Shown here in pieces: positions 30,716 through 45,172 of a DNA stretch of 64,000 nt. How positions within the stretch are numbered: the first letter of the stretch is position 1; every line of letters starts with the position of its first letter. The translations under genes were made by a program, and so were the position numbers. The DNA lies in the sequence record NC_135730.1. One strand, written 5' to 3'. Under the pieces are notes generated by a model. It did no database searches. It saw only the letters and a list, made by a program, of their open reading frames with translations, and had not been told where the DNA came from. This stretch comes from a phage.

Positions 30716-31402
30716 ATGGCAGAGATTAAGTCGGATGTTAACCACATCCACACTCTGCCAGATTTTGTTCAGGGAGGTCTTGACTACCTACCTGGAGATT
30801 TTCTGGCTGAGAAGGTTAATTTAGTCACATTCTTAACCGTATACCTTAAAAGGTTGGAGGATGTTGATAAGATGCTGGTAGGTTTGGCTGAAGGAAGATT
30901 GCTTAACAATGCCAGCGGAAGATACCTTGACGAAGTTGGTAATCAACTTGGTATTCTTAGGAATGGACTTTCAGATGCTGATTTTCGTGCCACACTAATT
31001 ATTCAGCAGGCCGCAGCATCAAGGGGCGGGACTCGCGAAGATGTCATCTCCACCTTGCGACAATTGTTCGGAAGAGACAATTTCGATACGTGGAAAGGAG
31101 ACAACTTCAGGTTTGACATAAATATTAGAAAAACTTGCTTTGACATATTGCAGTCTATCGATCAGATCTTAGATATGCTACCATTACCTTGTCATTTGCG
31201 TCTTACAGAATCGCAAGGGCAAGCTTTTGGTTTTGAAGGGGACTCTACAGCTCTTGGCTTCGGATCAGTGTGGGAAGAAAGCCAATTCGGAGTTGGTGGG
31301 CTGGCTACTTTGCTATATGTTCCTGACGTAAGACCTGATTGGGACACCACAACCATTTATTGTGAAAGTATTACAGTAAACGCAACTAGACAGGAGGGTT
31401 AA
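30716..31402 (+). CDS. putative tail protein I-like baseplate protein
   Basis: 228-aa ORF following the Baseplate_J-like gene; motif LDEVGNQLGILRNGLSDADFR resembles gpI-family proteins. Confidence 0.35.
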   Translation: MAEIKSDVNHIHTLPDFVQGGLDYLPGDFLAEKVNLVTFLTVYLKRLEDVDKMLVGLAEGRLLNNASGRYLDEVGNQLGILRNGLSDADFRATLIIQQAAASRGGTREDVISTLRQLFGRDNFDTWKGDNFRFDINIRKTCFDILQSIDQILDMLPLPCHLRLTESQGQAFGFEGDSTALGFGSVWEESQFGVGGLATLLYVPDVRPDWDTTTIYCESITVNATRQEG

Positions 31403-33474
31403 TGGCAACAGCTGTTTTTAAACCTTACCGTGATTACTCTACAATGGCTGCACAGTTTCATTACCGAACAGTTCAGGATACTGCCGTTCCTGGTAGGGAT
31501 TATAATCATGTTGAGGGCGATGTAACTATCCCAATTGGGGCAACCAGTATTGAGATCCCCGTGGAAATTGTTGACAAATTACCCAACAGGTTGCCAAGAA
31601 GCTTCTTTATGGAGTTTTCATCAAAATCTCAAGGGGTGATGATTGGAACACAAAGGGCGAAATGTACAATAGTTTCAGATGAGAATCTTGACAGGATATC
31701 TTGGGATACTGTTGAGGAGAGAATGTTTCACCCAAGGTATTGGGTTACAACTACTCAGCAGACTGAAAGTACCTGTATTGTTGCAGATAACAACTGTTGT
31801 ATTAACCGTTTAGTGTCAAGAACATATGGAGGTATGGCTGGGTGCATTTGGGAAACAGTTGACAAGTATGACCATTTCGGTATTGGGTTTGATGATCACT
31901 ATGAGATGAGAAACACCAAGCTTTGGTTCAGAATGTCAATAACCAATGCCAGCAACTTCTCCACCCCTGAAAAGATGATTATGACTGTAGACCTTGTTGA
32001 TGGCACAATCATCTATGTTCCTTTAGCTCAATATGCTGTCAGCATCTCAGAGGATAAGAATGTTGCAGAGATTCATATTGATTTCGAGGACTGCGTCGGG
32101 ATGGATCAGAACAACAACATGATGGGTGTTGATCCTCGGCAGGTGAGAAGGATTTTAATACCGCTTATGCCTAAAGACTGGGTAAGTAATAGCACAGACC
32201 CGAGAACGGAAAATGTAGAGTGTGAGTTGCGCCTAGATCTGCTTCAGCCAGACACGGGCTGGAAAATGATGGAACTTAACAATATTCAGGTTAAAGAGCA
32301 CGACGTCGGGATCTGCACCGCATATGACGATATGTGGAACGTATCTCCTTTAAGGGTGTTGAACAATATCAAGCGTCTGGGCTATACCGGAACCATAAAC
32401 CATTATGTTGGTATGAGTCATTATTATGACTACACATGGTCAGGAACCCAATGGTCTATAAACAGAACAGGGGCGCTAAACGCTGCAGCTTATAAATGGC
32501 ATGATGATTTTATGTACAATGCCAAACGACATAACTTCGACGTTATGCAATCTGTAAGTTTTGAGCTTTTCAGCGATGCCTGCCCGTTGGAATGGACCCA
32601 AAGAGACTGGAACGATAACTACGCTAAAACAGGGTATACACCCTGTAGCTACCTCCTGTCTCCAACCATTGAAGAGGGTATGAATTTCCTTACTGCAGTA
32701 TTTAAGAATTTTGCATCAGCCGCTATGAGAAACAACCTGCCAGTGATTATGCAGGTTGGTGAACCATGGTGGTGGTACAATACCGATACTCGTAGACCTT
32801 GTATTTATGATTACCCTACAAAGCAGGCGTTTTATGATGAGACAGGTGAGTATGCATTAGATATTGGGACTATTGACGATCCTAAAACTGGCGGTGTTTA
32901 CGACAAGTATGTAGCATTTTGTCGTGGTAAGCTTGGAGCTCGTATTGCGGCTATTTCAAAGGCAATAAAGGCACACGCTGCATCAGCTCAGATGACAGCT
33001 CTGCTGTTTTTCCCAACCATTATGGAAACCGAGCTTACGCAAAAGCTGAACCTTGCTGACCAATATAAAAAGGAAGCAGGTGCTCTTGATTTCTTCTGCA
33101 CCGAGTGCTACGATTGGGTGATGCAGGGAGGTATTGAAAAGGCAAAAGAGTCTGTAAACATACCTATCGTTAAGTTAGGTTGGCAACCGTCTGAAATACA
33201 ATACCTTGCAGGGTTCGTTCCTAGTAAAGAGCTTGCTCCGGTATATGGCTACGACCCAACCAGGAATTACCAAGAATTTTTATGGAGATGTATCTGCGGA
33301 AACATGGCAACCATAGAGTATAGATACCCTGAGGTAAAACAGTATGTGTGGGCATACCCGCAAGTAATGTCTGACAGCATCACTGTTACAGCCAGAGATT
33401 CTACCGTGCTTCATATGGGGCAGGTTGCTCTGAAAGGGTATGTAGAAGATGTTGTCCCTCCAGACTTCTCATAA
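31402..33474 (+). CDS. tail-associated protein with Calx-beta-like N-terminal domain
   Basis: N-terminal pattern DYNHVEGDVTIPIGATSIEIPVEIVDK resembles Calx-beta; large C-terminal domain of unknown, possibly enzymatic, function. Confidence 0.35.
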   Translation: MATAVFKPYRDYSTMAAQFHYRTVQDTAVPGRDYNHVEGDVTIPIGATSIEIPVEIVDKLPNRLPRSFFMEFSSKSQGVMIGTQRAKCTIVSDENLDRISWDTVEERMFHPRYWVTTTQQTESTCIVADNNCCINRLVSRTYGGMAGCIWETVDKYDHFGIGFDDHYEMRNTKLWFRMSITNASNFSTPEKMIMTVDLVDGTIIYVPLAQYAVSISEDKNVAEIHIDFEDCVGMDQNNNMMGVDPRQVRRILIPLMPKDWVSNSTDPRTENVECELRLDLLQPDTGWKMMELNNIQVKEHDVGICTAYDDMWNVSPLRVLNNIKRLGYTGTINHYVGMSHYYDYTWSGTQWSINRTGALNAAAYKWHDDFMYNAKRHNFDVMQSVSFELFSDACPLEWTQRDWNDNYAKTGYTPCSYLLSPTIEEGMNFLTAVFKNFASAAMRNNLPVIMQVGEPWWWYNTDTRRPCIYDYPTKQAFYDETGEYALDIGTIDDPKTGGVYDKYVAFCRGKLGARIAAISKAIKAHAASAQMTALLFFPTIMETELTQKLNLADQYKKEAGALDFFCTECYDWVMQGGIEKAKESVNIPIVKLGWQPSEIQYLAGFVPSKELAPVYGYDPTRNYQEFLWRCICGNMATIEYRYPEVKQYVWAYPQVMSDSITVTARDSTVLHMGQVALKGYVEDVVPPDFS

Positions 33475-36872: not shown

Positions 36873-38618
36873 ATGGCGCAAGACATGACAAGCTTTGAGC
36901 AGGCGGTAGATCAAGTAATTGTTGATTCTGAACGTTTGCACCTGATTGTCAACGGTAACGCTGTGGATGAAGTTGTCGTAGAGGATGGGACCACCATCCC
37001 TACGGTACGAAAAGCCATGCTTGACACCCTTTATTTTAAAACGCCACCGATCCCTTGGGCGTATGGTGCATCCACAACAGTTTTTAACCAGCTGTATGAG
37101 TTTAAAGGGGATACAGGCCCTCAGTGGTGGTACGCTCCCGCAGCATCAAAATCTAACCCGGTTAGAATGCCAGCAGATCCTTCACAATCTCCAAACTGGA
37201 GATTATACACCGACTCTGCAGTAATGGCAAAATACTACGCAAAACTTAACAGCCCAAGGTTCGAAGGTGACCCGCGAGTACCTACACCTCCAATGGACGA
37301 TAAGTCAGAGTCCATAGCAAACACAGAGTTTGTTGTTGACTATGTTGATAGCATATTTAAAGCCATGGAAGGGATGAAAGTTACTGTAGGGTCTTTGGTG
37401 GTAAAAGGTCTTACAGAACTCGCTAACACTATAGTTGGTGGCACCCTTACCTTACATGGACCTGTTAATGGGGCAGATTCTACTGCACGCTTCAGGAATC
37501 TAATCCTCACGGCAAATACTTCTACACTTACTTTTGCGTGGAGCGATCCTAAGCATGCAGACTGGAGAAGCACAGAGCTGCAACCTCATGAAGTGTCCAC
37601 CCACAGGATTATAGCTGACACTATAACTTCTGGGAAACCAGTGGCTAATAATAACGATGTGCATTTTGATGGTCTAGGTAATAACTTTTTTGACTACGTG
37701 TACATTCGTGGTAATGCCATGAAGGCAGCAACCGAACCGACATTACAGGTTGATGGGACCACCAGGGTTAAGAACCTTGAGGTGACAGGTACCGTTACAG
37801 GGATAACCTACTCTGTCGATGGCACCATGATCTACCCTAGCTATATTGAAAGCACGGGTGATGCATTGATAAATGGCGATTTGGAGGTTGGCGGGTCTGT
37901 AGTTATTCGAGGTACAGCCTCTATCCAAAATATAGCTCTGAATACTCTAAGAGTCAATGAGCGTGCAACTTTTGAAGGAGAAGGGCTTACAGCTAATAAA
38001 GGTACAATTACCGAGCTGACAACCACCACTTTAACTGCAACAACTGCAAACTCTGAAAACTGCAACGTTACCAGAAACTTGCAGGTAAATGGAGATGTTA
38101 GTTTAAACGCAGCAGGGACGGGCACCACCTACCTTCACAACCTTGAAATATCCGGCACAGTGACTGGGTGGCTGCCAGACTTCTCTAATGTCAACTTTGT
38201 TTGTAATGGCATTAACTCCAGTGGCAAGATAACCACCTCTCAAGAAATTGAGGCGGGTAAAACCATTACTGCCCCTACTTTCCACGCAGGAAAGGTAGAT
38301 TTTGATTTAGAGGAGGTTGACGCGTCCAGTGGGACATGGACACCTAACGGGCAGGCCAGTATGTATGTTGTCCACGCGAAAGGGGATTTTACAATAGGAC
38401 AATGGCCTGGTACATCAGCGGAAGATAAACCTTATCCATTCACTGCGGTTATCTATGTCATTCAGGATGCTGTAGGTCACAACGTGACTTTGCACGATAA
38501 GTATGCTATCCTGTCGGCAACGCCTGTTATTAATAACAAGGCTAATAGTGTTACCTTGCTGCAATTAACATATTGTGGTGTTGGTGATATCGTAGACGTA
38601 GTAATTGCACAACGTTAA
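36873..38618 (+). CDS. tail fibre protein
   Basis: 581-aa ORF with fibre-like N-terminal motif (SIANTEFVVDYV) and Thr/Gly-rich repetitive beta segments; RBS AAGGAGA. Confidence 0.45.
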   Translation: MAQDMTSFEQAVDQVIVDSERLHLIVNGNAVDEVVVEDGTTIPTVRKAMLDTLYFKTPPIPWAYGASTTVFNQLYEFKGDTGPQWWYAPAASKSNPVRMPADPSQSPNWRLYTDSAVMAKYYAKLNSPRFEGDPRVPTPPMDDKSESIANTEFVVDYVDSIFKAMEGMKVTVGSLVVKGLTELANTIVGGTLTLHGPVNGADSTARFRNLILTANTSTLTFAWSDPKHADWRSTELQPHEVSTHRIIADTITSGKPVANNNDVHFDGLGNNFFDYVYIRGNAMKAATEPTLQVDGTTRVKNLEVTGTVTGITYSVDGTMIYPSYIESTGDALINGDLEVGGSVVIRGTASIQNIALNTLRVNERATFEGEGLTANKGTITELTTTTLTATTANSENCNVTRNLQVNGDVSLNAAGTGTTYLHNLEISGTVTGWLPDFSNVNFVCNGINSSGKITTSQEIEAGKTITAPTFHAGKVDFDLEEVDASSGTWTPNGQASMYVVHAKGDFTIGQWPGTSAEDKPYPFTAVIYVIQDAVGHNVTLHDKYAILSATPVINNKANSVTLLQLTYCGVGDIVDVVIAQR

Positions 38619-38628
38619 TATATATCTA

Positions 38629-38655
38629 ACCGCTCCTGACGGGGCGGTTTTCTTA
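38629..38655 (+). terminator. intrinsic terminator
   Basis: ACCGCTCC-tgac-GGGGCGGT then TTTCTT. Confidence 0.5.
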
Positions 38656-38668
38656 TCTGGAGAACACA

Positions 38669-41600
38669 ATGCTTCCAATCCCTTTGCTAAAACTTGGTCG
38701 TCATTTCCTCGATAAGAGGGGTGGAATTAAGGAACTTGCTGTTCTGTCATACCCAATAGACAACAGTGATGGTACAAGCAACACAGTATCCTATGTAAAT
38801 AGCTTAGCTATACTTTTTGATGATGGTCAGCTTAATATTACTGGCTATAATAGGTTCGGGGAGTGTCGGACTGGAGATCTTGATACAATAAACTATCCTA
38901 ATGAGGCAGCTTGGAACGTAGACCATGTTTGGAGAGCTGACCGTGCATTTGTAATCCGCACATTCGATAATAAATTTTTCTATATTGGTTGCACAGCTGG
39001 TCTTATCGGATCGGAGGCAGCAGGTGGAAACGATGTTTGTGTCAGAGAGTGGACACCTTTGCCGGAACAGATCGTAACAGGGTTGCATTTGGACACCCAT
39101 CCTGAGAGACTTGTTGAAGTAATGGGTGGCGTAAACAATACAGTGTGGGTAATTGCTGCACCAGAGGCTGATGGTATGCTTCACCTGTACGGCTCTGGCA
39201 ATAATACTTACGGCTCTCTTCATGTTGACAAAAATCAGCATGCAACCCCTGTAAAGATTGGTGAGACATCGGAAAATCCTGAAACAGGTCCTTGGAAAAA
39301 CCCAAGCATCAACTGCGAGGTGCATGACAACTCTGTTATTTTCGGTGGTCCTAGAGGTTTCTGGATTGCTGGATACGACTTTCTGAGAAATAACAGTAGA
39401 AACGACCTTGTTTGGCCTCCTGTGCAGATTACTCGTAACGATTTGAGGGGCATTCCTGCAGATGAGGAGTGGAAAGGGTTTATGTGCGGTCCTAACGGGG
39501 CAATAATTGCCACACAGAGGATGCATAGACCCGATGACCAGCAGCTTGTTAACGTATTTTATGGTCAAAACATTTGGGGAGATGATACATGGCGGGAACT
39601 GAATATCACCTACACCCATGAGGTAATAATGGCTCGTGGGTACGGCACAAGTGGCATTTTCTTCAATAATGGCACCAAGCAGTATCGTGGATTCTCTCGC
39701 AACTTGTGTAATGATATTGGTGCACAATCTGCAAACAATAGTCCTAGGTCCGATTTTATCCACTATCAAGCTCTTGCTACAGCTAAATATGTTGAGCAAC
39801 GCCTGCCAGTTAGCTGGACAGAGAGTGTTTATTTCCAAGGCATCCATAGAGAAGGTTTCTTAGGGACCTTTACTGTTGTTAATGGTAAACTTTGGTGGTC
39901 AGGCATCCCAAGGGGAAGTTTTGCAGGCTCTAACAACCTGTTTGGAGGCAGACTTAATAGCCAGGGGTTCACAGAGGTTCCTGAGAATTGGTATAAAAAT
40001 GTCCCGGTAGACAGTTGGGGTGTTGAGGATATTTTCGACGTTAACGGTGTTAGCAGCGTTAGCAATATTTACATTGGTGACACGGTCAAGATGAAGTTGA
40101 AGCCTCAGCCAGAGGGGGCTACGTTCATTATTGACAAGATTGAACTGGTAAATGCTGCAGGTACGGTTGTTACAGATGCAAATTACCAATTCTCCACCAA
40201 CTGGAACCACGGCGGGGCCAACGAAGTTGTTGTTACCCAGTATAACAGAAATGTTAACAGACGTGGCCTGTACTCTGTAAAAATAACCTATCATGACAAG
40301 CATGGCACAGGCAGAACCCATACGACAAGGACTTTGAACTGGAACACCATAGTTCCTGCGTATCCGTCCAACGGCAAGTGGCATACTGTCGGTAGAAACA
40401 AACAGTTCCATGTCAACGATACTGTATACTTCGGGCTTAACGCAGCTCAACCTGCTGTAGAAGGCGATACATCGTATATAGTACGACTCCATAGAATGGA
40501 TGCCGGGTCTGTAACCTACGATGTGACTCAGGAGATCTACGATCAGAGACGTACCACGTATGACAATGTTGTGAAAACACAAGCCTTGTGGGAGTTCAAC
40601 CCTAACGGCAGAGGCGGTAAAATGTTGCAGGTCAACGAGCAAAACGGGACATCGTTGACTGTCCATGAACATCCAGATCCTTGGCCTGATCCTGGAAAAC
40701 CTAACTCTGGTGCTCGTACACTGAAAATTGTTAGCCATGATGCAGGATATTTCGGAATACGCTGGGAAGCCACAGTAAGATATGCCGACGGGACAACAAA
40801 CAACATAGGGATCACCCTTGGTGGCACTAGTGAGGATAACTCCCTGAAAATTGCCTACACCCCTAGGGGCATCTCTATTGACAACATAGATGTTGTTCGC
40901 AACGGTTACGGCGATGTGAATGTCAAAGTTACTCTTGGCGAACATCTTGGTGGGGAAAGGATCATCATGTATGCCTTTGATCATGATCCGCGCACCAATG
41001 GGACTTATGCAAATCAGGCATGGAGTTATCTGATAAATGCACCTGAGCCGAATACTAAAGAGTTCTACTACGGTATGAAGCGAGATGTGTGCAAGAAAAC
41101 AGGAACACATGATTGGATTGCTATCTGCGTTAAAGATGAGCGCACAGCTTGGGATGAGCCTGTTAACAGATGGTTCATAGGTATTCCTACCAGAAGTGAT
41201 AAGTATGTCGCAGAATATATTGTATGCATGGGCGGTACCAACCTAAACATGTGTTGGAACGAAGATGTAAACAAATACTCTGATTATGACTATATGAGGG
41301 ATTACTCTTGTAATTTGTGGTTTAACCAAACTACAGGTTACCCTCCGCGTCAGGTAAGGGTAAATCCTGCAATCTTTACAGATACGCAGGTTTTCTTGAC
41401 AAAACAGGCCAACGAGGTCCGGACCTTCAAGAACAAATACGACCCTAATAAGTGGTTCTATAACTGCTATGGGGCATTTTTCTGGGGACCTGGAGAATTA
41501 CCTGGTGGTGGCTCTTGTTTTGAGGCTGCAACTTACGCCAGTGACAGATTTATGGGCCAGGTCAAGAAATACAAGATAATTCCAGGGCCTGAAACTTTAG

Positions 41601-44305
41601 GTAACGCTGTCGACCCCTATATCATCATGAGTGATCTAAGATCGAACATGGATGGAACATCCATATCTATGCAAGTTCCGGTAACAAACGGATACAAGCG
41701 TGTTGTGATGATCATTAAGTGCGATCTGATAGGTAAGCAAGTTCTTGCAGAGAACGGAACTTCCACCCACCTATTTGAGACTGCTCTGCACTATCAGTTT
41801 GCTGATTCACCTTTTGCAGGGGATAAGAGAATATCTGACACAGACGCTGTGCGATGCAAGAAATTTATGCTAGGTGGTGGGTGGTGGTGGTATGAATTTG
41901 ACTTAACAGACAAATTCACCGACACATCTAAAGTGGTGACAGGACTTCGTCTAGACCTGGGTGAGAACATGCATAAAAGTGTTTGTGATGGCACCTACGG
42001 TGATCCTACGGTATACTTGAAGTATGTTTCTTTTGAGCACCCTGAAGATGTTGTTTATGGTCCAAAACTGAGGCTGTTTGGCAATTGGATTGCTAAAGAC
42101 AGAGAAGGGATGGGTAGGAAGGTAAGAGGCTTCCTGGTCGATGCTGGCACAGAGGATATGCTGGTGAATGCGGTGTGGCCTGAATTACCGGGAACTCAGT
42201 GGGACAATTCTGCTAAGTCTATAAACTGGTTCAATATCCACAGAGCTATGTGGGCAACTAACTGCTATCTGTGGAAAGAGTTGAATGACGGCGCTTTCGG
42301 GTTTACTGGTGGCAGAAGAATGGCAATCATTTGCTGGACAACGCTGCAGAGATGTTATGACCATGACTATGAGATTGGAGGCAGGGCATGGAAAAATATA
42401 AGGGATAGAATCATAACTAACTTTGCAGATCCTAACGGTGGCGGGGCGTATGGTTTCGACTGCAGCAGACTTATCCATTTGAACGGATCTTCGGCCTATA
42501 AGAAAGAAGGCTACTCCGGGTCCATGATTGAATGGGGCTTGGTAAAAGATGCTCGTGTGTTGATGGGTCAGCAACTTGCTGCTGCAATAGGACCGAACGC
42601 AGTACAATCTGTTAAACCAGCGTGGTTCGATATCCCATTATGGTCCTCTGGAACACCGGGAACTGCTGCAATCAACCCTACCACTGGGGATCTGGAAATC
42701 TCCTGGGAGGACTTGAAGCAGGTCGGTGGTTGGGACAAAACAGGGTATCAGGTTCAGTGGTGGAGAGCTGATGGATCTTTAGCTGCTGATGAGTTTGTTA
42801 AGGACAATTTCTACACTATGTCCTCTGCAAAAGCACAGCAATTATTTGGTCAGGCCACTCCGTCAACGATCACCATGTCTATGTGCTGTAAAGACAACAG
42901 GACTGGAGCTTTGGGGCCAAGGGTTGCTAAGGTTTTCTCAGGTATTAAATGGAATCTTCCTGTTCAAAGTGTTTCATGGAAGCAAATAGGTGATAACAAG
43001 CTGCTGGTTACCCCTGCCTGTCAGTTCAACGCAACTCTTAACGTTGATCCTGCTGTTGCGGCAAACTCAGCTAAAGCTTCTGACTTCTCTGTGTCTAACA
43101 CTGCTATGGCAGATGTGAGGAAGATTGACACACTGAACGCCAGAATTACCTGTAAAAACACTTATGGCACATTCCAAATCATCAACAACTTCACAGATGC
43201 TGATTCTAAGGTAGTGAGGACAGCAAGCCAGACTCTGAGTTTAGGAACTCTGGCCTATGCGGCACTGATCACCGAACAGTCGGCAACACTCCAAGGAGGC
43301 GGTGTAGGCAAGTCCATTGCAACACCTGTGTGGAAGCCGAATGAGTGGGTTGTGTTTGATTTGACTGTGGACTTCTCCAGTGATAATAACTGGACATGGG
43401 TAAGGAATTGTTTGTCACAGTTGATGGGCGGTACAAGCTCCATTAGCGATAGTCACGACTCTACCGACCCGAGCGTGTTCCAGGTGGGTAAAACTCACCC
43501 AGAGACTGGAGAAACGTTGCCTGACAGGAAGTATGCTTTGGTTTGCATCTCTTACGGGAAGGCAGATGTCACATTCTCAGGGACACACACTTATAACGGA
43601 ACTTACAACTTCTCAAGGAAGTATAGTCTCAAAGCAGGGAACATTATAGACGAGGTCGGTGTGCTGTATAATCCGGGCAACGGCATAGGGATTGTGGGCG
43701 GTAAACTGCAGATGCAGGAACCTTCTATCACCCCTTCCAACGTATCCGGGATTAGAAAGACTTGGGAAAGTAGTAATACCAACATTGCAACAGTGGATGC
43801 CACCACAGGGCTGGTAACATTTAAAGCTACTGGGAATGTCACCATAAAGTTTGTAGTTACAGATGATGCAGGCCGCAAAACGTCTTCAACATCGTTTACT
43901 GTCAAACAGATGGCACCACAGTGGAGAATGTGGATAGGTACAGCAACAAACGGGGCATACCCTAATCCGGCAGGTACTTCTGGTATGAAGACTTTCTCTA
44001 CAAGCAAACCGATGGAGTACGGCAGCGGTCCTAAGGTAGGGCAGATGGTGTACTTTGGTGCGTATATTCCTGAAATTATAGGGCTTCCGAGAAGTCAGCT
44101 TCAGTTGCTGTTTGGGGCTGGTGTTGACGATCTTGCCACTTTCGGGTATAGCGACAACATCGAGGCTGCAAGGAGTTCAGGATGGGTAGGGTTCAGAATG
44201 GAGTCTGGAAAGGAAGGCAGGATTCTAGGGACAGCCTCTATAGGTGTTATGTTCCCTGGTGACCAGCAGTATCGTCTAGAAGCCTACGCAACCTTTTCTC
44301 GTTAA
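38669..44305 (+). CDS. giant virion-associated protein with bacterial Ig-like (Big_2-like) domain
   Basis: 1878-aa ORF, last gene of the structural operon; Big_2-like segment IATVDATTGLVTFKATGNVTIKFVVTDDAGRKTSSTSFTV near the C-terminus. Confidence 0.55.
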   Translation: MLPIPLLKLGRHFLDKRGGIKELAVLSYPIDNSDGTSNTVSYVNSLAILFDDGQLNITGYNRFGECRTGDLDTINYPNEAAWNVDHVWRADRAFVIRTFDNKFFYIGCTAGLIGSEAAGGNDVCVREWTPLPEQIVTGLHLDTHPERLVEVMGGVNNTVWVIAAPEADGMLHLYGSGNNTYGSLHVDKNQHATPVKIGETSENPETGPWKNPSINCEVHDNSVIFGGPRGFWIAGYDFLRNNSRNDLVWPPVQITRNDLRGIPADEEWKGFMCGPNGAIIATQRMHRPDDQQLVNVFYGQNIWGDDTWRELNITYTHEVIMARGYGTSGIFFNNGTKQYRGFSRNLCNDIGAQSANNSPRSDFIHYQALATAKYVEQRLPVSWTESVYFQGIHREGFLGTFTVVNGKLWWSGIPRGSFAGSNNLFGGRLNSQGFTEVPENWYKNVPVDSWGVEDIFDVNGVSSVSNIYIGDTVKMKLKPQPEGATFIIDKIELVNAAGTVVTDANYQFSTNWNHGGANEVVVTQYNRNVNRRGLYSVKITYHDKHGTGRTHTTRTLNWNTIVPAYPSNGKWHTVGRNKQFHVNDTVYFGLNAAQPAVEGDTSYIVRLHRMDAGSVTYDVTQEIYDQRRTTYDNVVKTQALWEFNPNGRGGKMLQVNEQNGTSLTVHEHPDPWPDPGKPNSGARTLKIVSHDAGYFGIRWEATVRYADGTTNNIGITLGGTSEDNSLKIAYTPRGISIDNIDVVRNGYGDVNVKVTLGEHLGGERIIMYAFDHDPRTNGTYANQAWSYLINAPEPNTKEFYYGMKRDVCKKTGTHDWIAICVKDERTAWDEPVNRWFIGIPTRSDKYVAEYIVCMGGTNLNMCWNEDVNKYSDYDYMRDYSCNLWFNQTTGYPPRQVRVNPAIFTDTQVFLTKQANEVRTFKNKYDPNKWFYNCYGAFFWGPGELPGGGSCFEAATYASDRFMGQVKKYKIIPGPETLGNAVDPYIIMSDLRSNMDGTSISMQVPVTNGYKRVVMIIKCDLIGKQVLAENGTSTHLFETALHYQFADSPFAGDKRISDTDAVRCKKFMLGGGWWWYEFDLTDKFTDTSKVVTGLRLDLGENMHKSVCDGTYGDPTVYLKYVSFEHPEDVVYGPKLRLFGNWIAKDREGMGRKVRGFLVDAGTEDMLVNAVWPELPGTQWDNSAKSINWFNIHRAMWATNCYLWKELNDGAFGFTGGRRMAIICWTTLQRCYDHDYEIGGRAWKNIRDRIITNFADPNGGGAYGFDCSRLIHLNGSSAYKKEGYSGSMIEWGLVKDARVLMGQQLAAAIGPNAVQSVKPAWFDIPLWSSGTPGTAAINPTTGDLEISWEDLKQVGGWDKTGYQVQWWRADGSLAADEFVKDNFYTMSSAKAQQLFGQATPSTITMSMCCKDNRTGALGPRVAKVFSGIKWNLPVQSVSWKQIGDNKLLVTPACQFNATLNVDPAVAANSAKASDFSVSNTAMADVRKIDTLNARITCKNTYGTFQIINNFTDADSKVVRTASQTLSLGTLAYAALITEQSATLQGGGVGKSIATPVWKPNEWVVFDLTVDFSSDNNWTWVRNCLSQLMGGTSSISDSHDSTDPSVFQVGKTHPETGETLPDRKYALVCISYGKADVTFSGTHTYNGTYNFSRKYSLKAGNIIDEVGVLYNPGNGIGIVGGKLQMQEPSITPSNVSGIRKTWESSNTNIATVDATTGLVTFKATGNVTIKFVVTDDAGRKTSSTSFTVKQMAPQWRMWIGTATNGAYPNPAGTSGMKTFSTSKPMEYGSGPKVGQMVYFGAYIPEIIGLPRSQLQLLFGAGVDDLATFGYSDNIEAARSSGWVGFRMESGKEGRILGTASIGVMFPGDQQYRLEAYATFSR

Positions 44306-44320
44306 CAAGTGGGTAAATAA

Positions 44321-44349
44321 AAAGGGGCCAAACGGCCCCTTTCTTTTTA
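44321..44349. terminator. bidirectional intrinsic terminator between convergent operons
   Basis: AAAGGGGCC-aaac-GGCCCCTTT flanked by an A-run upstream and a T-run downstream. Confidence 0.65.
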
Positions 44350-44352
44350 TAA

Positions 44353-44553
44353 TTAGTAATATTCCCAACACGACCCATCTTCAGACGGCTGGACACGCTT
44401 ACCTTCATGATCGACATAGGTGTAACCACAGCCTTCACAGATAACAGGTGCTGCATAGCCTTCCTTCCACTGATCCTCAGTGATCAATCCTTTCAGATCT
44501 CCGCAGTCACGACCAAACAACTCTTCAGAACAGTCTTTACAAAAATCAGCCAT
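44353..44553 (-). CDS. small Cys-rich (zinc-ribbon-like) protein
   Basis: 66-aa ORF with CKDC...CEGC pairs; RBS GGAGAC. Confidence 0.35.
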   Translation of the reverse strand: MADFCKDCSEELFGRDCGDLKGLITEDQWKEGYAAPVICEGCGYTYVDHEGKRVQPSEDGSCWEYY

Positions 44554-44622
44554 CTCTATCAGTCTCCATATTTAACCAATCTATATTACATATTGCCGAA
44601 GAAACAGTATTTCATTTCATCA

Positions 44623-44841
44623 TCACAGATCTCCAACAACTTCCCAAATACCCCAGTGAGCATCTATATCCTTGATAAAGTATCTTTCTCCACGGTTTGT
44701 CCACACACCTATCCCACCTTTACCATCTATCCCATTGTATACATCTGCCTCATACTCTTTGCCCGGTGTAAAGTGTACACCCATCATAAGGGCTGTTATT
44801 CCATTAGGATTTTTAAATTTAACAAATTTTACTTTGCTCAT
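44623..44841 (-). CDS. hypothetical protein
   Basis: 72-aa ORF, ATG start with upstream purine-rich RBS. Confidence 0.3.
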   Translation of the reverse strand: MSKVKFVKFKNPNGITALMMGVHFTPGKEYEADVYNGIDGKGGIGVWTNRGERYFIKDIDAHWGIWEVVGDL

Positions 44842-44842
44842 A

Positions 44843-45172
44843 TTACTTAATCCTTGCAGTTACAGTAGCGCTATACCCCATGTAGTTATGAGACATAAAG
44901 AATGTAAGCCCTTTAAGTTCAGGATTCTTTCTAAGAAATCGTTTCAATTTTCGAATGCAATTAACACCATGATCATAGTTTGAGAAATTAAATTTAATAC
45001 CCTGCTCCATCATAGTGCACACTTCTTCATGGGTATGCCATTGTCTATCGTGGTCACAAAACCAGTAACCAATACCTTCTTTTTCTTGGATATGCAATCC
45101 CCAAAATACTTTATGCATTGGATATTTTGGTTTTCTACCATGATAGTGTAGTTTAATATTCACATGTGCCAT
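44843..45172 (-). CDS. hypothetical His/Cys-rich protein
   Basis: 109-aa ORF; RBS ACGGAG. Confidence 0.3.
   Translation of the reverse strand: MAHVNIKLHYHGRKPKYPMHKVFWGLHIQEKEGIGYWFCDHDRQWHTHEEVCTMMEQGIKFNFSNYDHGVNCIRKLKRFLRKNPELKGLTFFMSHNYMGYSATVTARIK

Follow-up and report, generated by a model that had tools for sequence, protein, structure and literature searches.

Phages related to rV5 are common and are broad-host-range candidates for therapy and biocontrol, and the assignment of their genes to individual fibres is an open question (PMC8594841, PMC12143355). Their largest structural gene encodes a protein of 1878 residues, gp27 in rV5, whose family has many relatives that are 95-99% identical in amino acid sequence and hold the same position as the final gene of the tail-fibre locus. 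One of these is bas53_0040 of JohannBauhin (QXV81163; 1878 aa, PHROG 15684), and the label given to the rV5 gp27 ortholog in BASEL is "lateral tail fiber protein with intimin domain". Positional orthologs exist in other genera, namely ESCO5 gp226 (Phapecoctavirus, 890 aa, annotated as "tail protein"), 4MG_038 (Seunavirus, 567 aa) and PVP-SE1 gp40, each of which is the terminal gene of its tail block, follows a fibre gene, contains Big_2 domains and shares an N-terminal propeller at 28-41% identity. No published genetic or biochemical data on receptor binding by rV5 gp27 orthologs were found in the literature.

A gene of this family is contained in the window analysed here, which is a 64,000-nt stretch of phage DNA (NC_135730.1). 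The initial annotation had described an ORF of 1878 aa, and reading of the window sequence recovered it exactly, with an ATG start and a GGAG ribosome-binding site at 38659-38662, 6 nt 5' of the ATG (Table 1). The predicted product has a mass of 208 kDa. Identity to rV5 gp27 orthologs reaches 98.5% at the nucleotide and 99.4% at the amino acid level (97.9% at the nucleotide level for bas53_0040), and on sequence the protein is an ortholog of rV5 gp27. There is no substantive difference between the two, and the window represents a further isolate of the genus Vequintavirus. Because the gene was already known and is of an ordinary kind, the discovery is a modest one.

That mis-assembly has produced the ORF by artificial fusion, a possibility raised in the initial annotation, can practically be dismissed, since the gene is present over at least 80% of its length in 107 independent phage records and the fully read orthologs all have 1875-1878 aa. 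The same unbroken ORF occurs in metagenomic contigs, where the homologs have 1711-1976 aa and gene order is identical. Comparison with a 74%-identical homolog gave pN values of 0.06-0.29 against pS values of 0.56-0.85, with pN far below pS in every segment. Purifying selection thus acts along the entire gene, which also argues against mis-assembly, and an open frame of 1878 codons cannot be attributed to chance. When aa 1-460 and aa 841-1440 served as queries in word-indexed homolog searches, all matches were fragments of this one protein and the alignment was not enlarged, and a profile search of the PDB with the full-length alignment gave no useful match. One homolog (P0001) has a precomputed Pfam assignment, PF26918.

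The earlier suggestion that this is the terminal gene of the structural operon is borne out by its surroundings. It is the final plus-strand gene before a strand switch, the genes next downstream lie on the opposite strand, GC skew changes sign at about 44 kb, and a hairpin between the two convergent blocks closes both of them. In Vequintavirus, Phapecoctavirus, Seunavirus and metagenomes (three lineages at 40-74% identity) the gp27-family gene always closes the tail-fibre block and immediately follows a fibre gene. A second terminator-like hairpin separates the 1878-aa gene from that fibre gene, and it is possible that it acts as an attenuator and reduces expression of the 1878-aa protein; terminators are annotated at the corresponding site in phiTE and phAPEC8. 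Virion proteomics, which had been put forward as a check, was available from the literature for rV5 gp27, the 1878-aa counterpart: it was detected in particles by mass spectrometry with 3 peptides and 9 spectra, a coverage of 3.1% (PMC3606486, supplementary file 5), compared with 85.3% for the rV5 head decoration protein gp61.

Table 1. Features of the 1878-aa protein gene and its surroundings, with positions in the 64,000-nt window
Feature	Residues	Position	Strand	Basis or remark
Upstream 581-aa trimeric fibre gene		36873..38618	+	homolog of phiTE long tail fibre phiTE_241
C-terminal 105-aa head of 581-aa fibre		38301-38615	+	proposed docking site
Terminator-like hairpin AACCGCTCC-TGAC-GGGGCGGTT with T-rich tail		38628..38649	+	between 581-aa fibre gene and 1878-aa gene
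Complete gene for 1878-aa protein	1-1878	38669..44305	+	ortholog of rV5 gp27 and bas53_0040; PHROG 15684 full-length match
RCC1-like repeat beta-propeller (predicted)	1-445	38669..40003	+	profile against PDB, Pfam, Foldseek, conservation
347-aa antisense ORF		38804..39847	-	not a gene: by-product of codon-aligned antisense frame
403-aa antisense ORF		39899..41110	-	not a gene: by-product of codon-aligned antisense frame
About three beta-sandwich (Ig-like) domains	446-845	40004..41203	+	AF2 model
Central Trp/Cys-rich region	846-1329	41204..42655	+	HMMER, AF2, pN
Three beta-sandwich domains (FN3-like/Ig-like)	1330-1670	42656..43678	+	AF2, pLDDT up to about 89
Big_2 bacterial Ig-like domain	1671-1760	43679..43948	+	Pfam match at aa 1682-1733
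C-terminal alpha/beta domain	1761-1878	43949..44302	+	AF2, conservation profile; least conserved
Bidirectional terminator-like hairpin AAAGGGGCC-AAAC-GGCCCCTTT, then T-run		44321..44342	.	closes plus-strand structural block and convergent minus-strand block

The N-terminal region had been called beta-rich, and this holds; the region is predicted to be an RCC1-like propeller that has diverged highly. It is the best conserved part of the protein, with a mean identity of 75-80% among homologs, and begins with a motif, M-x-P-I-P, that is invariant across genera. A family profile of this region matched UVR8 (E = 1.2e-8) and the RLDs of HERC1 (4.4e-6) and HERC2 (5.8e-6) in the PDB. Pfam WD40_RLD matches were obtained in 12 of 16 homologs, PF25390 scoring at most about 18.8 bits against a cut-off of 150 bits, and the window protein itself has no match to RCC1 (PF00415) or WD40_RLD (PF25390) in Pfam at E <= 1. 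RCC1 repeats above the 21.7-bit cut-off are found in ESCO5 gp226 (24.2 bits) and 4MG_038 (36.9 bits), and the alignment with these two covers the entire domain of about 445 aa. Foldseek with the low-confidence model of aa 1-860 listed HERC2, HERC1, RCC2, UVR8 and RCC1, with probabilities up to 1.0 and E values of 6e-4 to 2e-2. A single-blade HMM found only two to three blades, and we infer seven from domain size and motif reading.

The repeat signature and predicted fold are thus like those of UVR8, the HERC1 and HERC2 RLDs, RCC1 and RPGR, although the window protein has diverged below the Pfam cut-offs for this fold and a Ran or chromatin role is not expected of it. RCC1-like proteins have been detected by mass spectrometry in virions of phage W70, jumbo phage phAPEC6 encodes eleven of them, and it has been guessed in print that such phage proteins condense DNA. 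That role is out of keeping with a gene standing last in a tail-fibre module. We propose that the propeller is a virion-anchoring module.

Segment-wise structure prediction, another check named in the initial annotation, gave beta-sandwich domains, but the AF2 models, built from an alignment of 16 sequences, have an overall pLDDT of only 46.5 (aa 1-860) and 56.2, and domain counts are approximate because both are of low confidence overall. Within aa 446-845 reasonable model confidence is confined to aa 736-845 (pLDDT 70-80), with values of 55-65 for aa 450-560; weak Bact_surface_Ig-like matches occur at about 506-561 in homologs. The three sandwiches beyond the central region have Foldseek matches to the tandem Ig strings of cadherin, NUP210 and S-layer proteins, and within them, at about aa 1440, the conservation profile enters its variable zone. 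The whole arrangement resembles in fold searches the tandem beta-sandwich strings of intimin, invasin and S-layer proteins.

The central region of about 480 aa is of a different character. It is strongly constrained (pN 0.08-0.18) and contains invariant acidic and Trp-rich motifs, and AF2 models a beta-sandwich at aa 966-1125 with confidence; its flanks, aa 846-965 and the predicted helical aa 1126-1329, are of low confidence. An exhaustive HMMER search of 1.84e9 representatives recovered only its own family, a profile search of the PDB gave nothing at E <= 10, and Foldseek with whole multi-domain models returned generic tandem-Ig neighbours only, with no specific match to this region. The glycosidase (865 aa) and deacetylase (690 aa) fibres encoded nearby were tested as possible paralogs of it and rejected, the hhalign probability being below 1%.

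Near the C-terminus the Ig-like domain reported in the initial annotation was recovered, the peptide quoted there lying inside a Pfam Big_2 match (PF02368; 33.5 bits against a cut-off of 22.8, E = 4.1e-8). The domain is similar in sequence to the Ig domains of intimin of the D1/D2 type, and intimin entries in the PDB are matched over 49 residues at E = 0.003-0.006. Identity with intimin was rejected: there is no beta-barrel, LysM or lectin domain, and the intimin equivalog NF033627 scores 22.5 bits against a cut-off of 1400 bits, covering aa 1696-1734 only, that is, one Ig domain. The "intimin domain" of the BASEL label thus denotes no more than a Big_2-type Ig domain. A motif within it, GIGIVGGK, aligns with the first Big_2 domain of ESCO5, 4MG and phi92 gp152. 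In ESCO5 and 4MG that first Big_2 domain comes directly after the propeller, whereas in the window protein the two are separated by about 1200 aa (aa 450-1670), made up of beta-sandwich domains and the central region.

The last domain is the least conserved part of the protein, the C-terminal part being 20-45% identical among homologs in contrast to 75-80% at the N-terminus. Within Vequintavirus the last 288 aa fall into two allele groups, with 73 records at 95% identity or more and 36 at 80-90%. Such a conservation gradient, together with two alleles of the tip, is the usual pattern of an anchor with a receptor-binding tip, and we propose that the terminal alpha/beta domain is a distal ligand-binding tip.

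The gene preceding the 1878-aa gene may indicate where the protein is attached. Its product, a fibre of 581 aa, matches PDB 9cuy_g at E = 1.6e-76, and the phiTE homolog binds the baseplate wedge. The fibre and propeller genes are adjacent in all lineages examined, even where the remainder of the fibre has been replaced. In lineages carrying the propeller the preceding fibre gene always ends in the same head domain: the upstream fibre of 4MG matches the 581-aa fibre over its full length (44%), and in ESCO5 the 105-aa head is the sole part in common (51% identity). Strict co-occurrence of head and propeller had to be rejected, the head being commoner (384 phage records against 212 for the propeller) and sometimes found next to no propeller gene. 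In phi92, gp151 with the head is followed by gp152, a protein of 202 aa with Big_2 only and no propeller, and in 121Q the gene after the head-domain fibre encodes a DUF4376 protein. In phiTE the corresponding position is held by phiTE_242, which shows weak N-terminal resemblance (hhalign probability 22%), has no Pfam match and is absent from the PDB. In the RBPseg paper a fibre head is described as "connected to another density", and in the proximal baseplate region density was reconstructed for no more than three of the nine fibre proteins annotated. RBP65/TC8 of that study may be the 581-aa fibre, an assignment made by elimination only.

Taken together, the evidence favours, with a probability of about 0.55, a low-copy and probably monomeric modular adhesin of the tail-fibre apparatus, made up of a propeller anchor, a chain-like spacer and a variable glycan-binding tip. 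The propeller would anchor the 208-kDa protein to the particle, most likely at the C-terminal head of the trimeric 581-aa fibre. An anchoring role is supported by the fact that the propeller alone is common to the 890-aa ESCO5 and 567-aa 4MG orthologs. About eight to nine beta-sandwich or Ig-like domains and the lineage-specific central region could form a long flexible spacer, and the variable Big_2 domain and C-terminal tip might make weak, reversible contacts with glycans on the surface of the host or in its surroundings, which would aid initial adsorption and influence host range. We infer the monomeric state, the attachment site and the glycan binding; the Foldseek matches to monomeric tandem-Ig adhesins and S-layer proteins support the first, and a low copy number fits the terminator-like hairpin in front of the gene. 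Weak carbohydrate adhesion is the likely function of Ig-like domains on phages. The receptors identified for Vequintavirus map to other proteins, the NGR glycan to the deacetylase fibre and the LPS core to the short fibres, and as these already explain infection of K-12 the role of the adhesin may be accessory or conditional.

The initial annotation had offered a giant adhesin or fibre, and it is the first of these that parts of the protein resemble, in the form of monomeric multi-domain adhesins. A lateral tail fibre of the classical homotrimeric kind, which would form the distal shaft in one of three lateral fibre sets, would agree with the BASEL annotation, with the lateral tail-fibre locus and with allelic variation of the kind seen in other distal fibre genes. 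It is nevertheless improbable because Pfam, PHROGs and NCBIfam gave no coiled coil, triple beta-helix or S74 intramolecular chaperone, no assembly-protein gene lies downstream, and the AF2 models contain no helical or beta-helix shaft. The protein starts, moreover, with a fold that is closed and, in the solved structures matching it, formed by one chain, its structural neighbours are beta-sandwich strings rather than trimeric fibres, and the RBPseg density near the baseplate accounts for so few of the annotated fibres. That the protein is a whisker of its own, attached to the baseplate, sheath or neck and not by way of the 581-aa fibre, is unlikely, though somewhat less so; the loose coupling of head and propeller across phages speaks for it, as do the thin 70-nm fibres that are visible only occasionally in rV5 micrographs, but the constant adjacency of the two genes and the further density at the fibre head do not.

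A decoration of the capsid or neck of the Hoc type, with Ig-like domains displayed on the head, is suggested by phrog_215, which covers aa 1591-1877 (the C-terminal domain and the Ig domains before it) and is filed under "head and packaging", and by BFVD fold matches, among them Hoc and major head proteins that bear Ig domains. The generic Ig fold explains such matches. T4 Hoc is likewise an Ig-like accessory, but the window protein is far larger, of low copy number and encoded in the tail locus behind a fibre whose homolog binds the baseplate wedge, and the contrast in virion coverage between gp27 and gp61 makes a head location very improbable. Constraint and invariant motifs in the central region, and the glycosidase or deacetylase domains of neighbouring fibre proteins, could also point to a mainly enzymatic protein in which this region is an unrecognised glycan depolymerase or esterase, like other "Swiss army knife" fibres. 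We regard this too as improbable, for the region matched no enzyme family in Pfam, NCBIfam or PHROG, no PDB entry and nothing outside its own family, hhalign separates it from the neighbouring enzymatic fibres, and its best-modelled part is a beta-sandwich.

A bolder version of the preferred adhesin model is doubtful. In it a single-chain adhesin would plug by its propeller into the trimeric fibre head, the RCC1-like proteins in virions of other large phages would serve as adaptors or adhesins of the tail and not as DNA-condensing factors, and the central 480 aa would adopt a new fold with a glycan-binding or catalytic role. Docking of a distal protein on a proximal trimer is the logic known from T4 gp34-37 and tips of the gp38 type, but the hypothetical partner here would be a propeller-anchored Ig chain, in contrast to a trimeric shaft or a small adhesin like gp38. 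If this were true, a monomer-on-trimer fibre tip would be a type that has not been structurally described, and the docked adhesin would account for unassigned distal density in cryo-EM maps of Vequintavirinae. A propeller shared across genera, a head-domain fibre in front of it and an allelic tip lead to hypotheses that can be put to the test and that bear on cryo-EM density fitting and host-range engineering. The analysis also corrects two likely misreadings, the "intimin" label and the condensation of DNA by phage RCC1-like virion proteins.

Two long antisense ORFs had been noted inside the gene. Both are present exactly, but as genes they have been dropped from consideration, and that they are real overlapping genes is scarcely credible. 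They are annotated in no relative. At 91-95% nucleotide identity, in FFH2, typing phage 4 and 241Ecol014PP, they are already broken up, with pieces of 146-254 aa, and in the 74% homolog they are reduced to at most 183 codons. Their frame is codon-aligned, and stops arise in it only from sense TTA, CTA or TCA. Their lengths are somewhat beyond what shuffling would lead one to expect, the longest stop-free antisense run being 447 codons against a shuffled mean of about 250 (p about 0.01), and the three codons are depleted three-fold in aa 1-859.

The 1878-aa ORF taken in the initial annotation to close the structural block is confirmed as the last + strand gene, standing before a change of sign in the GC skew at about 44 kb and a strong hairpin; a ribosome-binding site (GGAG) lies 6 nt 5' of its ATG. 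At the nucleotide level it shares up to 98.5% identity with rV5-like phages (genus Vequintavirus) and matches 120 phage records, in 107 of them over at least 80% of its length. A tblastn search found the full-length protein (query coverage of 80% or more) in 109 records, and among the 50 matches listed all such records are rV5-like genomes, mislabelled "Campylobacter phage" entries included. The gene is the ortholog of rV5 gp27 (1878 aa, 208,334 Da), entered as a conserved hypothetical protein with Big_2. The same ORF in phage JohannBauhin, bas53_0040, carries the annotation "lateral tail fiber protein with intimin domain" and is the final member of an extended run of baseplate and fibre genes, small opposite-strand genes coming next. 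The virion-proteomics check proposed initially could be answered from rV5, in which gp27 was detected by three peptides and nine spectra (3.1% coverage; PMC3606486 supplement), the major head and tail proteins reaching 16-85% coverage in the same data. The gene is already known and annotated, its product has been seen in virions, and as an Ig-domain phage structural protein it is of an ordinary kind. About 15-20 GenBank records (MG0656xx) named 'Campylobacter phage', with Campylobacter jejuni as host, share 94-98.5% identity with E. coli rV5-like phages over this gene, and their host label looks doubtful.

Features of the giant gene, its product and its surroundings (aa, residues of the giant protein; other positions in nucleotides)
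Feature	Position	Strand	Basis or remark
690-aa fibre gene	31402-33474	+	
581-aa fibre gene	36873..38618	+	
Head domain of 581-aa fibre	38301-38615		C-terminal 105 aa
Terminator-like hairpin	38628-38649		T-rich tail; between 581-aa fibre gene and giant gene
Giant ORF	38669..44305	+	ATG start, 1878 codons, TAA stop, no interruption
RCC1-like beta-propeller	aa 1 to ~445		Homolog profile and fold matches
About three beta-sandwich domains	aa 446-845		AF2 reasonable only for 736-845
Trp/Cys-rich central region	aa 846-1329		AF2 and profile searches
Four beta-sandwich domains, final one Big_2	aa 1330-1760		AF2 and Pfam
Small alpha/beta C-terminal domain	aa 1761-1878		Least conserved part
Antisense ORF, 347 aa	38804..39847	-	Present; judged not a gene
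Antisense ORF, 403 aa	39899..41110	-	Present; judged not a gene
Strong hairpin	44321-44342		Flanking A-/T-runs; 16 nt past giant-gene stop
147-aa ORF	44407-44850	+	Directly past terminator

Mis-assembly or fusion, the artefact originally envisaged for so large an ORF, is excluded by orthologs, synteny and a purifying pattern of divergence. Besides the 107 records, full-length orthologs of 1875-1878 aa are present in three annotated Vequintavirus genomes, cluster representatives (n = 15, 40-96% identity) are 1711-1976 aa long, and the gene occurs in identical gene order on three metagenomic contigs. In comparison with a 74%-identical homolog, pN (0.06-0.29) is far lower than pS (0.56-0.85) in each segment. 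The propeller segment has a pS of 0.56, lower than the ~0.8 found elsewhere in the gene.

Domain analysis and AF2 structure prediction, both suggested at the outset, resolved a propeller, beta-sandwiches, a central region, Big_2 and an alpha/beta tip, with confident models for aa 966-1125 and poor ones for the propeller and the flanks of the central region. In an alignment of 16 homologs mean identity is 75-80% over aa 1-460, about 35-70% over 460-1430 and 20-45% over 1440-1878. The N-terminal region, previously described only as beta-rich, is identified as an RCC1-like propeller by homolog profile and fold matches. The N-terminal region of the window protein alone reached no Pfam threshold; weak WD40_RLD matches (about aa 50-205) were seen in 12 of the 16 homologs. 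Two shorter positional orthologs, ESCO5 gp226 (Phapecoctavirus) and 4MG_038 (Seunavirus), score 24.2 and 36.9 bits for the RCC1 repeat (cut-off 21.7), and their N-terminal domains match an RCC1-like domain (RLD) model over about 290 residues. A profile built from four N-terminal domains matches the solved RLDs of UVR8 (1.2e-8), HERC1 (4.4e-6) and HERC2 (5.8e-6) and also RPGR, RCC2 and RCC1, and Foldseek with a poor AF2 model of the propeller returned HERC2, HERC1, RCC2, UVR8 and RCC1. A single-blade HMM found only two or three blades; size and motifs suggest seven.

The central region contains a confident beta-sandwich (pLDDT 70-84) between poorly modelled flanks and is under strong constraint despite having no outside relatives: a profile search run exhaustively against 1.84 billion representative proteins gave no match beyond the family, and no PDB entry matched at E <= 10. 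Comparison with the neighbouring glycosidase and deacetylase fibre proteins found it unrelated to them. Further on, Big_2 was identified at aa 1682-1733 (E = 4.1e-8, 33.5 bits vs a cut-off of 22.8), and the peptide quoted initially for an Ig-like domain near the C-terminus lies inside this match. The cadherins, NUP210 and S-layer proteins (SbsB, Sap, EA1) that are fold neighbours of the four-domain segment are tandem strings of Ig-like domains. The Big_2 domain matched an intimin Ig domain in the PDB at E ~0.003 over 49 residues, and the protein scored 22.5 bits against the intimin equivalog model (cut-off 1400); the "intimin" label reflects the likeness of a single Big_2 domain to intimin Ig domains and nothing more. 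The Pfam list of a 96%-identical homolog has PF26918, which may be a recent model for part of the protein.

Over residues 1-197 the giant protein shares about 40% identity with the phAPEC8-like "tail protein" at its N-terminus and about 30% with Seunavirus and Cronobacter phage genes. The gene ends the tail block in both ESCO5 (890 aa) and 4MG (567 aa), straight after a fibre gene, and the alignment with the giant protein spans the entire propeller. The first Big_2 of these proteins lies immediately past the propeller, whereas about 1200 residues intervene in the giant protein. The counterpart of the start motif of that Big_2, GI.IVGG.KQLT, is GIGIVGGK at aa 1672 in the giant protein, and by this correspondence the Vequintavirus protein looks like a propeller-plus-Ig protein into which about 1200 residues have been inserted. 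In phi92 the position is filled only by a 202-aa Big_2 protein, gp152, and in phiTE by a 413-aa protein whose relationship to the giant protein is uncertain. The literature searched did not describe the RCC1-like N-terminal propeller as a module shared across genera, nor the large lineage-specific insertion, nor the repeated association with a fibre head domain. Condensation of DNA has been put forward, as speculation, for the RCC1-like virion proteins of W70 and phAPEC6; the position in the tail locus argues for a tail role instead.

The 581-aa fibre upstream matches the phiTE "putative tail fiber protein" of PDB 9cuy/9mjn (E = 1.6e-76), a long tail fibre that attaches to the wedge and sheath initiator by its N-terminus. 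It aligns over its full length with the 4MG upstream fibre (44% identity) and only over its last 105 residues (51% identity) with that of ESCO5, which is otherwise unrelated and collagen-like; where the propeller gene is present, the fibre encoded before it therefore has this head as its C-terminal part. The head domain occurs in 384 phage records, among them rV5-like and phAPEC8-like phages, phi92 gp151, phiTE_241, Klebsiella and Salmonella phages and the jumbo phages 121Q/PBECO4, and is a mobile module that terminates fibre proteins with no other relationship to one another. An exclusive head-propeller pairing was rejected, since the head is more widespread and in 121Q the next gene encodes a DUF4376 protein. 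Cryo-EM of two Vequintavirus phages distinguished a class of fibre made up of a helical bundle at the N-terminus, two beta-helices and a head at the C-terminus; by elimination this class is probably the 581-aa protein.

We suggest, at a probability of about 0.55, that the giant protein is a low-copy modular adhesin anchored by its propeller; its assignment as a tail-associated protein of structural or adhesin type can be held more firmly. The earlier interpretation as a giant adhesin or fibre is supported in part. The conserved propeller would serve as the anchor, and the head of the 581-aa fibre is the most plausible site for it; this specific docking is a tentative proposal, and an independent whisker is less probable still. 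The beta-sandwich chain and central region would form a long flexible arm, and the variable Big_2 and C-terminal tip, of which there are two alleles within the genus, would touch surface glycans. Ig-like domains on phage particles may give weak adhesion to carbohydrates. Such an adhesin would probably be monomeric, and a classical trimeric fibre is improbable. Viral fold neighbours of the Ig-like region include Ig-bearing head, tail and Hoc proteins; decoration of the head in the manner of Hoc is the least probable of these readings.

A mainly enzymatic role seems as improbable as a trimeric fibre. Enzymatic domains are annotated in the JohannBauhin counterpart (glycosidase and deacetylase) of the 690-aa fibre, which is orthologous to metagenomic genes carrying NCTSP_N and TIM-barrel_NCTSP (Pfam). 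Recent papers report that such a deacetylase-domain fibre targets the NGR glycan in Vequintavirus, and the primary receptor-binding function is thus assigned to another gene. The LPS core is a further receptor identified for these phages, and the short fibres are proposed to contact it. Because the identified receptors map to other proteins, the role of the propeller-anchored adhesin may be accessory or host-dependent.

The hairpin upstream of the giant gene lies inside the structural operon, immediately 5' of the ribosome-binding site, and terminators are annotated at the equivalent junction of phiTE and phAPEC8. This recurrence suggests that attenuation of the last gene of the block is conserved. 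Partial termination here would fit the low abundance of the protein in virions.

The two long antisense ORFs pointed out initially are present in the sequence and are by-products of their reading frame rather than genes. The frame that holds both is the antisense one aligned with the sense codons, and its stops arise solely from sense TTA, CTA or TCA. The longest open antisense run is 447 codons against a mean of about 240-257 when synonymous codons or codon order were shuffled, and was attained in ~1-1.5% of shuffles. The frame is so open because aa 1-859 (38669-41245) use these three codons at only 7 per 1000, about three-fold below the 23.5 per 1000 of the remainder of the gene and ten other structural genes. 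This depletion, a mild oddity, has no counterpart in the 74%-identical homolog, whose longest antisense run is 183 codons. In FFH2, O157 typing phage 4 and 241Ecol014PP (91-95% nucleotide identity) the stretch is broken up, the pieces being 146-254 aa long, and neither ORF is annotated in any relative.

The 147-aa ORF past the terminator is probably spurious, since relatives have small - strand genes annotated in that stretch. In one metagenomic relative of this phage group (L004:15189-16298, - strand) a protein of 369 aa that bears YadA_anchor, the anchor domain of trimeric autotransporters, is encoded just 3' of the giant gene, among small opposite-strand genes, an unusual cargo for a lytic myovirus.
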